A stretch of 64,000 nt of DNA. Source: Enterobacteria phage GiZh. Position 1 is the stretch's first letter. Every line of letters starts with the position of its first letter. The stretch is taken from sequence record NC_054903.1; one strand, given 5' to 3'. Both the position numbers and the translations under genes were made by a program. Shown one piece after another: positions 15,291-24,175 of the stretch. The notes below the pieces were generated by a model. That model did not search any database, was not told the origin of the DNA, and saw only the letters and a list, made by a program, of their open reading frames with translations.

Positions 15291-15556
15291 TAGTATTTTT
15301 CCTCTGGTTGGAACACTGCACGACAAGCCCACATACTGGCTTCTTTGAGTTTCGTTTTAGCAATAGTTAACTGATCGAGGCTTTCAGCGTAATTCTTCGC
15401 GAGTTCATCATCTTCACAGCTATCAAATGCTTCCCAAAATTCATCGTATAAAGCATCAAAGATAAGTCCTAAACGAACTTCAGCGTCTTTAATAGCATTT
15501 ACTTTACCGATTTTTTCGTCGGTATGCGGCTTATAACCTTTAATATCTTCAATCAT
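15290..15556 (-). CDS. small helical protein, 88 aa; position of T4 vs.4 (anti-CBASS Acb2 family?)
   Basis: ORF track 15290..15592 trimmed to ATG at 15556 (MIEDIKGY) with GAGGAA upstream. Assignment to vs.4/Acb2 is by gene order only. Confidence 0.5.
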
Positions 15557-15770
15557 ATTTGACTTCCTCACCAGTGCATAAATCATATTCAACTAAACGA
15601 ATAGGTTCATGAATGCCATATCCTTGAACAGAAATTTCTGTCGTAGGATAAATTCCATCAATATCACCCATATTCCAGGCTTCATTAAATTGCTGTTCGC
15701 CTGAATTACTAAACCACTCGGCGAAAGCATTTAGCACATCTTTAGAACCTTCAATAATTATCTTTGCCAT
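15549..15770 (-). CDS. hypothetical protein, 73 aa
   Basis: ORF track; TAATG coupling to the upstream stop. Confidence 0.55.
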   Translation of the reverse strand: MAKIIIEGSKDVLNAFAEWFSNSGEQQFNEAWNMGDIDGIYPTTEISVQGYGIHEPIRLVEYDLCTGEEVKYD

Positions 15771-16132
15771 TACAAACTCTCGGTGAAGGTACGAGCGATA
15801 ACGTCGCGCTGCTGTTCCGGAGTCAGAGAATTAAAGCGAACTGCATAACCTGATACACGGATGGTCAGCTGCGGATATTTTTCCGGATGCTTAACTGCAT
15901 CTTCCAGAGTTTCACGACGCAGAACGTTAACGTTCAGGTGTTGACCACCTTCAATTTTAACTGTAGGCTGTGGTTCAATTTCAATTTCACGGGCATGCAA
16001 ACCGTAGAAAATTTCTGGGTCTACAAAAGAGTCCTCTTTAAAGGTTTTAGAGACAATAATTCGTGCTTGAATACCATCTTCAAAATAAATAGTACCTTTA
16101 TGTGTGCCTTCAAGAATTTGATATGCTTTCAT
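15770..16132 (-). CDS. autonomous glycyl-radical cofactor protein (GrcA/YfiD-like), 120 aa
   Basis: C-terminus ...[33 protein letters not shown] carries the glycyl-radical motif RVSGY; C-terminal ~60 aa look identical to E. coli GrcA from memory; the 3' half of the gene is visibly GC-richer than flanking phage DNA. Confidence 0.9.
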
Positions 16133-16138
16133 ATAACC

Positions 16139-16468
16139 TCAATTAGAAAATAAATTTATCCAAGATTGTTCTTTAATTAAAAATGGCTCAGAATCATATG
16201 CCATTAAACTTTGGGTAATTAGTCCTTTAAAAGGCCCATCAATAAATTCCATGGTAAAATATGGAATTTTATTCATTAATCTTGCATTAGGAGCAGTGCA
16301 CAAAACTCTGCATCCTTTGAATACGCCTTTTTGTAATTTGTATTGCTTGGGATAAAATTCGCTTAAAATGTTATTATTTGCCAAAATTTCAAAATGATTT
16401 ACCAATTTATTTTTAATAGTTTTTGGCGAAAAATAGAGATATTCGAAAAGCTGTGTGTCTGTCATCAT
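16139..16468 (-). CDS. hypothetical protein, ~109 aa
   Basis: ORF track 16139..16519 trimmed to ATG at 16468 (MMTDTQLFEY), which forms an ATGA overlap with the upstream stop. Confidence 0.55.
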   Translation of the reverse strand: MMTDTQLFEYLYFSPKTIKNKLVNHFEILANNNILSEFYPKQYKLQKGVFKGCRVLCTAPNARLMNKIPYFTMEFIDGPFKGLITQSLMAYDSEPFLIKEQSWINLFSN

Positions 16469-17145: not shown

Positions 17146-17619
17146 TTATTTGAACGATTTAACGTACTGAATAGAACCTTTACTATTCACAAAGGCAATT
17201 TTACCATTTTTATTATACATGGTAGCAGTACGTTGATAACCATAAGTTTGTTTACCAGATTGATAACCAACTAATGCGAAATTATCTTCGCCCATTTTAT
17301 TCTGTTTAGCGCGAATGCGTTCATGACCATGTGCCATAAGAACCTTAGCATCACCAGTTGCAATGGATCGACGAGTTTTTTCATCTTCAACTGTATTAAC
17401 AAAGTCGTCAAATGAATCAAATTTAGCATGAGATTTATTATACAATTTTCCATCTACTGCATAATTATATCCCTGTACATCCATCTCAACTTCTGTACCA
17501 TCATCCAATACAGCAGTGATTTTTTGACCTTTTTTAAATTTCAAAAGATCAGTAAAAGATTCAGCAATAATTTGAGAATTAATAGCTGCTTCAGTGATAA
17601 ATTCTTGATATGTTTTCAT
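17146..17619 (-). CDS. internal-protein-like capsid-targeted protein, 157 aa (ipII/ipIII position)
   Basis: N-terminus MKTYQEFITEAAINSQIIAE matches the T4 internal-protein capsid-targeting sequence (MKTYQEFIAE...) with Glu cleavage sites. Confidence 0.7.
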   Translation of the reverse strand: MKTYQEFITEAAINSQIIAESFTDLLKFKKGQKITAVLDDGTEVEMDVQGYNYAVDGKLYNKSHAKFDSFDDFVNTVEDEKTRRSIATGDAKVLMAHGHERIRAKQNKMGEDNFALVGYQSGKQTYGYQRTATMYNKNGKIAFVNSKGSIQYVKSFK

Positions 17620-18104: not shown

Positions 18105-18635
<531 letters not shown>

Positions 18636-23344: not shown

Positions 23345-23420
23345 TGGTCGAGGCAGTAGGGATCGAACCTACGACCTAGGACTTAGAAGGTCCTTGCTCT
23401 TCCTTCTGAGCTATGCCTCG
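23345..23420 (-). tRNA. tRNA-Arg (anticodon UCU)
   Basis: Acceptor CGAGGCA/TGCCTCG, anticodon stem-loop AGGAC-CTTCTAA-GTCCT, T-arm GTAGG-TTCGATC-CCTAC, CCA encoded. Confidence 0.82.
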
Positions 23421-23424
23421 GATT

Positions 23425-23499
23425 TGGCGGACGTGATAGGATTCGAACCTATAACCAATCGCTTAACAGGCGATCGCTCTGCCATTGAGCTACACATCC
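23425..23499 (-). tRNA. tRNA-Asn (anticodon GUU)
   Basis: Sequence GGATGTGTAGCTCAATGGCAGAGCGATCGCCTGTTAAGCGATTGGTTATAGGTTCGAATCCTATCACGTCCGCCA. Confidence 0.82.
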
Positions 23500-23503
23500 A
23501 AAT

Positions 23504-23590
23504 TGGTGGGGAGTGATGGAGTCGAACCACCCGAGTCGCAATGACAATGGATTTACAGTCCACACCGCTACCTCTACGGGATAACTCCCC
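23504..23590 (-). tRNA. tRNA-Tyr (anticodon GUA), class II
   Basis: Acceptor GGGGAGT/ACTCCCC, anticodon stem-loop GTGGA-CTGTAAA-TCCAT, variable arm TGTCATTGCGACTCG resembling bacterial tRNA-Tyr, T-loop TTCGACT, CCA encoded. Confidence 0.75.
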
Positions 23591-23602
23591 TAATTCATAA
23601 TT

Positions 23603-23677
23603 TGGTGGCCCTGGGTGGAATTGAACCACCATCTGGCGATTATGAGTCGCTTGCTTGAACCTTCCAGCTACAGGGCC
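23603..23677 (-). tRNA. tRNA with anticodon CAU (Ile with modified C34, or Met)
   Basis: Acceptor GGCCCTG/CAGGGCC, anticodon loop CTCATAA, T-arm GGTGG-TTCAATT-CCACC, CCA encoded; starts 1 nt after tRNA-Thr. T4 has an Ile tRNA at this position (memory). Confidence 0.75.
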
Positions 23678-23678
23678 T

Positions 23679-23754
23679 TGGTGCTGATTGACGGAATCGA
23701 ACCGCCGACCTTCTCATTACAAGTGAGTTGCTCTACCTACTGAGCTAAATCAGC
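23679..23754 (-). tRNA. tRNA-Thr (anticodon UGU)
   Basis: Acceptor GCTGATT/AATCAGC, D-arm GCTC-AGTAGGTA-GAGC, anticodon loop CTTGTAA, T-loop TTCGATT, CCA encoded. Confidence 0.85.
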
Positions 23755-23759
23755 AAAAC

Positions 23760-23849
23760 TGGCGGAGGCGATAGGATTTGAACCTATGAGTCGCCGGAGC
23801 GACTGCCGGTTTTCAAGACCGGTGCATTAAACCACTCTGCCACGCCTCC
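23760..23849 (-). tRNA. tRNA-Ser (anticodon UGA), class II
   Basis: Acceptor GGAGGCG/CGCCTCC, anticodon loop CTTGAAA, long variable arm, CCA encoded; starts 2 nt after tRNA-Pro. Confidence 0.85.
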
Positions 23850-23851
23850 AG

Positions 23852-23925
23852 TCTCCATACAAGGATTTGAACCTTGGACCTCCTGATCCCAAATCAGGCG
23901 CTCTACCAAACTGAGCTACACGGAG
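23852..23925 (-). tRNA. tRNA-Pro (anticodon UGG)
   Basis: Sequence CTCCGTGTAGCTCAGTTTGGTAGAGCGCCTGATTTGGGATCAGGAGGTCCAAGGTTCAAATCCTTGTATGGAG; CCA not encoded. Confidence 0.88.
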
Positions 23926-23935
23926 TAAATTAAAT

Positions 23936-24009
<74 letters not shown>

Positions 24010-24014
24010 AAATT

Positions 24015-24101
24015 TGGTGCGAGAAGTGGGACTCGAACCCACAAGGAAATCATTCCGCAGCATTTTAAGTGCTGTACCTTTACCAATTTGACCATTCTCG
24101 C
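24015..24101 (-). tRNA. tRNA-Leu (anticodon UAA), class II long variable arm
   Basis: Acceptor GCGAGAA/TTCTCGC, T-loop TTCGAGT, anticodon loop CTTAAAA, CCA encoded; starts 1-2 nt after tRNA-Gln (dimeric precursor arrangement). Confidence 0.85.
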
Positions 24102-24102
24102 G

Positions 24103-24175
24103 CTGGGAATAAAGGACTCGAACCTTTGCATCCTGGAATCAAAATCCAGTGCCTTACCAACTTGGCTAATTCCCA
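24103..24175 (-). tRNA. tRNA-Gln (anticodon UUG)
   Basis: Hand-folded cloverleaf: acceptor TGGGAAT/ATTCCCA, T-arm AAAGG-TTCGAGT-CCTTT, anticodon loop TTTTGAT; CCA not encoded. Ends +/-2 nt. Confidence 0.85.

Follow-up and report, generated by a model that had tools for sequence, protein, structure and literature searches.

A host-derived grcA patch encodes the glycyl-radical domain of the vs.6 gene in phage GiZh and other T-even phages

The DNA analysed here (referred to as the window) is a 64,000-nt stretch from Enterobacteria phage GiZh (NC_054903.1), a T4-like (Tequatrovirus-type) genome segment. On its minus strand, at 15770..16132, lies a complete open reading frame (ORF) of 120 amino acids, which is the orthologue of T4 vs.6 (protein Y06I) and encodes a small stand-alone glycyl-radical 'spare part', that is, a phage autonomous glycyl-radical cofactor resembling GrcA (YfiD) of Escherichia coli. 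A 168-nt tract in the 3' half of this gene is almost identical to E. coli grcA and is bordered on both sides by phage-type sequence. We interpret the gene as a vs.6 orthologue whose radical-domain segment was overwritten by host grcA through homologous recombination, and its product as a spare part for the rescue of pyruvate formate-lyase (PFL); we give this reading a probability of roughly 0.88.

The family assignment draws on the ORF list, Pfam, PHROG and the comparison with T4. The 120-residue product matches the Pfam family PF01228 (Gly_radical) with 66.8 bits against a cut-off of 22.2, and PHROG 1209 over its full length (residues 1–120 on profile positions 1–121, E = 1e-62). It shares 119 of its 120 residues with T4 vs.6, which has His73 where GiZh and E. 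coli have Arg. On the minus strand regB, vs.3 to vs.8, denV and e keep the relative order of T4, and the adjoining ORFs fall in the vs.5 and vs.7 families, so that the gene sits between vs.7 and vs.5 as it does in T4. A GAGG Shine-Dalgarno sequence (16137..16140, minus strand) is located 4 nt 5' of the ATG and shares bases with the TGA stop of the upstream vs.7 homologue; on the downstream side, the TAA of vs.6 and the ATG of the vs.5 homologue (15549–15770) overlap as TAATG. A scan for promoters and terminators beside vs.6 returned nothing convincing and none above shuffle expectation, and because no such signal adjoins the gene, vs.6 is probably read within a longer transcript. The GiZh gene belongs to a phage operon, whereas E. 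coli grcA adjoins ung.

The ORF carries the RVSGYAV motif, which is also found in E. coli GrcA. Within it, Gly95 (GGT codon at 15848..15850, minus strand) is the predicted glycyl-radical site; it aligns with Gly102 of GrcA (6OWR) and Gly734 of PflB (1H16). These two proteins, the second by its C-terminus (94 bits to 1H16), are also the closest solved relatives. The alignment to GrcA spans residues 22–120 and that to PflB residues 58–120 only, so that the N-terminal region is homologous to GrcA and the protein is more than a detached PflB C-terminus. Relative to E. coli GrcA the phage protein is seven residues shorter, and its first ~20 residues are unrelated. Similarity starts at residue 22, and residues 22–59 are only about one third identical. 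The original prediction, made from the letters of the window alone, was that the C-terminal ~60 residues are essentially those of E. coli GrcA; this was borne out exactly, as the last 60 residues (EGGQ...TESL) are identical at all 60 positions to GrcA residues 68–127.

At the nucleotide level the gene is composed of three parts, all on the minus strand. Gene nt 1–178 (15955..16132, residues 1–59) are of phage type: they gave no blastn match in any of 5426 complete E. coli genomes and are ~44% identical to E. coli grcA in a pairwise alignment. Gene nt 179–346 (15787..15954, residues 60–115) encode the glycyl-radical domain and agree with E. coli grcA at 167 of 168 positions. The sole mismatch, at gene nt 303 (15830), is synonymous: GiZh has AAT, whereas E. 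coli and all 14 further E. coli-type phage sequences in the comparison have AAC. The remaining 17 nt (15770..15786), TTC ACC GAG AGT TTG followed by the TAA stop, form a tail of phage type with five further mismatches, every one of them synonymous and confined to the last five codons (FTESL in both proteins). The outgroup phages have tails with GAG AGT CTA/TTG-type codons. In the blastn search the chromosomal grcA was matched in every one of the 5426 genomes, at up to 96.8%, and the match was limited to gene nt 179–363 (15770–15954). The longest run of exact identity is 122 nt. The best single breakpoint falls at aligned column 178, with 79 of 178 matches on its 5' side and 179 of 185 on its 3' side (Fisher p = 1.5e-31); the 5' crossover interval extends from nt 178 to about nt 189 and the 3' interval from nt 345 to nt 348. 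The host-like tract is therefore an internal patch with phage-type sequence on both sides.

The base composition changes at the same place. Gene nt 1–177 have a GC content of 34.5%, with 20% GC at third codon positions (GC3), and nt 178–360 have 48.6% and 43%; the 3' half of E. coli grcA has 49.4% and 41.7%. The patch itself, at 48.8% GC, ranks among the top 1.6% of 168-nt windows across the 64 kb. The original prediction of an AT-rich, phage-like N-terminal half thus agrees with our data, as does its expectation that the GC profile is not uniform across the gene. Its description of a GC-rich, host-like 3' half was right about the jump in GC and GC3 and needs correction in extent: the tract is internal and leaves out the final 17 nt of the ORF (the last five codons and the stop). 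Its suggestion that the identity to grcA would stand out from that of other phage genes also held, since a megablast search of the whole 64 kb against E. coli returned the patch as the only match to the chromosome. The other matches concerned the tRNA cluster only and were weak matches to a few plasmids.

An identity of this kind might reflect nothing more than constraint on the protein. On such an account the whole gene was captured long ago without any later recombination, the 5' half drifted, and the 3' half was held in place by selection on the protein, on codon usage or on mRNA structure. The radical domain is indeed nearly invariant as a protein in every phage and bacterium examined, and host grcA is strongly expressed and biased in its codon usage. 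Synonymous sites, however, speak strongly against it. Enterobacter phage EC-F2 and Cronobacter phage Invicta encode exactly the 60 C-terminal residues of E. coli GrcA, and their DNA is only 83% identical, with 28 synonymous and no non-synonymous differences in that segment (synonymous substitutions per synonymous site, dS, 1.6). Over the same segment, E. coli and Salmonella grcA are at dS 1.15, and the peptides that they encode are almost alike. The corresponding value for the GiZh patch and E. coli is 0.024. Because phages with the same peptide and Salmonella grcA are so diverged at synonymous sites, the identity of the patch goes beyond protein conservation. As a baseline, the homologues of Slopek-, Pseudoteven-, Karam- and Krischviruses and of T5-like and jumbo phages reach 66–86% identity to their best bacterial grcA. 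Moreover, the last five codons of GiZh are synonymously diverged although they encode the same residues as in E. coli, and Klebsiella phages follow Klebsiella-type synonymous sites. We consider an explanation without recombination hardly credible. Only recent recombination with the host gene, as proposed in the original prediction, accounts for the synonymous-site data.

The direction of the transfer is from host to phage. Between E. coli grcA and its orthologues, dS values for the two segments of the gene are 0.43 and 0.50 (Citrobacter), 1.15 and 0.91 (Salmonella) and 0.78 and 0.82 (Klebsiella). Because both halves of the E. coli gene are equally diverged from these orthologues, as vertical descent predicts, the bacterial gene has been vertically inherited and the phage is the recipient. 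The opposite transfer, in which phages overwrote the 3' halves of E. coli and Klebsiella grcA, has a precedent of sorts in the two-way exchange proposed for cyanophage psbA (PMC1484495). It is very improbable here in view of these values, and also of the patch itself, which carries the GC3 of E. coli, well above that of the phage 5' half; phage lineages that are free of the patch have a different, more AT-rich version of the segment. In addition, lytic infection rarely leaves a surviving recipient. Judged by its divergence, the transfer is recent: the patch is at dS 0.024 from E. coli, and a sister Escherichia species is at 0.048 from it. In Shigella phage sb2 no mismatch to E. coli was seen over the 163 nt compared (nt 181–343), and its only two differences 3' of nt 178 are both in the tail.

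Two further explanations were rejected. The patch occurs in more than 600 independent genomes, including the separate 8-kb T4 record X04567, and is therefore neither an assembly chimera nor a contamination. Nor is pflB or tdcE the donor: the best matches are annotated as grcA, and the peptide is of the GrcA and not of the PflB type.

We propose the following course of events. An ancient, AT-rich phage copy of grcA, diverged in its N-terminal half and found throughout T4-like, T5-like and some jumbo phages, would later have had gene nt 179–346 replaced by E. coli chromosomal grcA through homologous recombination or gene conversion during infection. The exchange would have been confined to the sole stretch in which phage and host genes are similar enough for pairing, and it would have had to end before the stop codon, leaving a few phage-type codons as a tail. 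The exchanged tract begins exactly at the start of the conserved EGGQHLNV block. Limits of the tract that coincide with the limits of phage–host homology are the signature of homologous recombination or gene conversion and not of illegitimate capture, and homologous recombination from host to phage is the most likely mechanism. T4 is known to recombine with homologous DNA in the cell, as in marker rescue from plasmids, and fragments of the degraded chromosome would be a plausible donor. We also observed, exactly at the 5' junction of the patch, an inverted repeat (15936–15950, plus strand; AGGTG-TTGAC-CACCT) followed by a T-rich run. It has a 5-bp stem, was flagged as terminator-like on the non-coding strand and is also contained in E. 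coli grcA; its position at the junction is probably coincidental.

The E. coli-type patch is common to about 630 phage genomes of three genera and is not specific to GiZh. Queried with E. coli grcA, phage sequences yielded 631 records at 95–99% identity, always over grcA nt 200–384 only; the host 5' half of the gene was matched in none of them. The carriers are Tequatroviruses (T4, T2 and RB phages included), Mosigviruses and a Carettavirus. Between GiZh and the Mosig- and Carettaviruses the flanks are 67–75% identical, the 5' half of vs.6 89–90%, the patch 96–99% and the tail 76%. Against phiE142, GiZh has 10.5 synonymous differences over the 5' half, compared with 2 over the patch (p = 0.009); as there are fewer in the patch than in the 5' half between genera, the patch is younger than the split of the genera. 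T4 likewise carries the E. coli-type patch, its vs.6 having the same neighbours (regB, vs.3–vs.8, denV), and encodes Ser94 by TCC where GiZh has TCA.

When the junctions are compared across T-even phages, as the original prediction had suggested, the 5' end is common to all E. coli-type phages, and the 3' endpoints are staggered. In Tequatroviruses that hardly differ in their 5' halves, the tract ends on its 3' side in a staircase over the last six codons. The tail of E. coli grcA reads TTT ACT GAA AGC CTG. T4 has TTT ACT GAA AGT TTG, the phages L097 and SG1 have TTT ACT GAG AGT TTG, L098 and Ozark have TTT ACC GAG AGT TTG, and the window and RB33 have TTC ACC GAG AGT TTG; the host-like tract of T4 (TTT ACT GAA) accordingly reaches two codons further 3' than that of GiZh (TTC ACC GAG). 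In UFV-AREG1 (L261, locus 74–436) the sequence is of phage type already from the preceding Thr codon, ACA TTC ACC AAG, and the protein ends in FTKSL in place of FTESL. This ending resembles the FTKEM of Karamviruses, and the tract is the shortest of the E. coli type in the sample. A different rearrangement was seen in Escherichia phage vB-Eco-KMB39 (L085, locus 301–718), in which a 55-bp tandem duplication of gene nt 171–225 spans the 5' junction of the patch and frameshifts vs.6 into two annotated ORFs; the duplication could be real or an assembly error.

A parallel patch of Klebsiella type is present in Jiaodaviruses. In JD18, KMI13 and Mineola the gene again consists of a phage 5' half, a host patch and a phage tail, and the 5' junction is that of the E. 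coli-type phages. KMI13 differs from a Klebsiella-type chromosomal grcA on a metagenome contig (L180) by 2 mismatches in about 164 nt and retains an 18-nt phage-type tail; its GC3 rises from 0.23 to 0.58. Among the Jiaodaviruses the retained tail measures 10–18 nt, varying by phage. Six Klebsiella-phage records are at least 99% identical to Klebsiella-type grcA (one mismatch in 168), and a further 101 records reach 95–99%. The patches of the two types differ by two residues, LLDAVEH in the Klebsiella type and LEDAVKH in the E. coli type, and each matches its host type. Against a bacterial set of 80 species representatives, without K. pneumoniae or K. oxytoca, the Klebsiella phage was only 91% host-like; L180 was found by a metagenome scan with a Klebsiella GrcA query. 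It has a bacterial N-terminus and was placed in the Klebsiella/Raoultella clade solely through its 5' half, which is 92% identical to a GTDB Klebsiella metagenome-assembled genome. On these comparisons, independent host-to-phage exchange has taken place at least twice in T-even phages, at least once with each type of patch.

Several other candidates from the same searches were set aside. In IMG/VR, L125 (91% to Yersinia grcA), considered as a third event, has a bacterial-type N-terminus and is a bacterial gene on a 'viral' contig; L165–L175, considered as grcA, are ends of pflB; and L122 was excluded for a frameshift. We further noted a full-length bacterial grcA (L025, locus 501–881) on unnamed4 of Klebsiella sp. 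WOUb02, a 276-kb replicon labelled as a plasmid.

How often the exchange occurred within the E. coli-infecting group is less certain. Five of the 14 sites that are polymorphic among the phages coincide, with the same base, with the seven variable sites of E. coli-type bacterial alleles (hypergeometric p = 0.009). The Ser94 codon is the clearest of these shared polymorphisms: TCA, the allele of the E. coli reference strain used, occurs in the window, sb2, RB9 and L100, and TCC in T4 and most other phages. In E. coli, TCC was found in 4816 of 5432 records, the rest differing somewhere within the 60-mer tested. These data and the staggered 3' endpoints favour several host-to-phage events within the group. 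The broader idea, that the radical segment of vs.6 is overwritten repeatedly by the current enterobacterial host in a kind of concerted evolution across the virus–host boundary, we put forward tentatively, at somewhat less than even odds; it might be favoured by selection if an exact match to host PflA and PflB gives the best rescue, or the host-type sequence may be a neutral by-product of homology.

A simpler history would be a single capture of the E. coli patch followed by its spread from phage to phage among Tequatro-, Mosig- and Carettaviruses in co-infections. We regard this as a serious possibility, though one that is rather doubtful. T-even phages recombine avidly with one another, all E. 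coli-type phages share one 5' junction, and the presence of the patch in phages from Yersinia, Salmonella and Citrobacter suggests that it travels with phage lineages; the shared polymorphisms are mostly at third positions and could have recurred. The common 5' junction is nevertheless uninformative, because homology starts there. An A/C transversion at nt 282 and a T/A transversion at nt 204 are also present in bacterial alleles, and each phage patch is nearer to E. coli (dS 0.024) than to the patches of other genera (0.05–0.16). The Klebsiella-type patch shows that host-to-phage exchange at vs.6 is repeatable, and Jiaodaviruses whose 5' halves are 99–100% identical differ both in the Klebsiella allele to which they are closest and in the end of the tract.

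The function is taken over from the literature on the T4 protein, and the GiZh product would accordingly be predicted to rescue oxygen-cleaved PFL. According to Wagner et al. (2001), as cited in PMC8683613, PFL-AE activates the T4 protein Y06I, and PFL that has been cleaved by O2 is restored by it; the host PFL target named in the original prediction is thus documented for the orthologue. By comparison with PMC13450708, the patch covers the structured radical domain, and the phage-type half is the counterpart of the N-terminus, a disordered region that helps radical installation and is dispensable for catalysis. From the Y06I and YfiD literature, the host activase PflA would install the radical on Gly95, and the radical-bearing protein would dock on a PFL from which O2 has removed the C-terminal radical domain, so that activity returns. 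A phage-encoded copy may sustain the fermentative supply of acetyl-CoA and ATP after host expression, grcA included, has been shut off.

The original prediction had also offered the phage anaerobic ribonucleotide reductase as a target. T-even phages encode NrdD and NrdG, and the protein could in principle serve NrdD and not host PFL. In the Klebsiella jumbo phage RCIP0023 a grcA-like gene lies directly downstream of nrdD, and a role in nucleotide metabolism was speculated upon by Nolan et al. 2006 (PMC1524935). Against this stand the radical domain, which is identical to that of E. coli GrcA and otherwise nearest to the PflB C-terminus, and the 33 solved-structure matches, among which there is no ribonucleotide reductase chain. 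Spare-part rescue, as far as PMC8683613 and PMC13450708 relate it, is demonstrated only for PFL, T4 Y06I included. The reductase as a target gained no support from our analysis, and we consider it very unlikely. The grcA-like gene of RCIP0023 (L096, locus 354–716) has a very AT-rich 3' half (GC3 0.08) without a host-like patch.

A number of observations weigh against the interpretation given at the outset. The evidence is wholly comparative, and the recombination event itself is something we infer from sequence. Exchange with the chromosome should be rare in T-even phages, which break down host DNA and have modified cytosine in their own. Staggered tract ends and shared polymorphisms would, if a single capture had occurred, be products of phage-by-phage crossovers and recurrent mutation, and the case for recurrence within the E. 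coli group is built on 15 sequences and few sites. Host matching is not strict, as Tequatroviruses isolated on Yersinia, Salmonella and Citrobacter bear the E. coli-type patch. Salmonella grcA searched against all phages gave nothing above 90%, that is, no Salmonella-type patch, and the other Klebsiella and Enterobacter phage genera examined are without a recent patch. For the Klebsiella-type exchange, the donor L180 is an unlabelled metagenome contig. At the protein level, GiZh vs.6 misses the NCBI GrcA equivalog cut-off (TIGR04365) with 153.3 bits against 170, E. coli GrcA scoring 234. Only profile positions 25–126 are covered, and the low score is explained by the diverged N-terminus; the protein would act as a GrcA does and is derived from one, but the phage vs.6 family is the more fitting place for it. 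Finally, the benefit of vs.6 during infection is a rationale drawn from its biochemistry.

Elsewhere in the window, a 157-residue ORF of an internal virion protein family (17146–17619, minus strand; PHROG 3155, E = 6e-102) separates the vs.8 homologue from denV. No gene occupies this place in T4, which has ipII and ipIII between denV and e, whereas in the window e (18105–18599) directly follows denV. Ten tRNA genes (Arg, Asn, Tyr, Met(CAT), Thr, Ser, Pro, Gly, Leu and Gln) are clustered at 23345–24175 on the minus strand; within them, 23439–23593 is 83–91% identical to tRNA-Tyr/Thr genes of a few E. coli plasmids.

Neither the gene nor its biochemical role is new, both having been known since 2001; vs.6 has also been listed as one of a small number of ORFs of unknown function that T4-like genomes conserve (PMC1524935). 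The type of process is known as well, from cyanophage photosynthesis genes: parts of psbA and psbD have been exchanged with the host genes by intragenic recombination (Zeidner et al. 2005; Sullivan et al. 2006, PMC1484495). In both cases a host-derived metabolic gene of T4-like phages is patchy in GC, contains segments exchanged with the host, clusters by host and bears signs of repeated exchange (PMC1484495). Intragenic exchange of the psbA type is recognizable in vs.6 by several features: a local excess of identity (167/168 against ~44%, with control phages at 83%), a shift in GC3, an assignable direction and more than one independent exchange. Unlike in psbA, the donor segment of vs.6 is near-identical to living host alleles (0–2 mismatches), so that partners and direction are unambiguous, and the patch forms one short tract whose ends are defined, in classical enterobacterial T-even phages. 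We found no earlier description of the vs.6 mosaic or of its Klebsiella parallel in the searchable literature, although an earlier mention cannot be excluded.

The importance of the finding is limited by the fact that this type of process is already known and that the benefit of vs.6 during infection is deduced. Taken together, the data nevertheless provide unusually clean evidence that homologous gene conversion from the host chromosome occurs in nature even in strictly virulent phages, which break down host DNA, and they offer a tractable experimental system for phage–host recombination. The patch suggests itself as a marker of host use for T-even phages. If repeated overwriting is true, its allele and endpoint would form a readable record of recent host use, and the locus would serve as a natural assay of how lytic phages recombine with a chromosome that is being destroyed.

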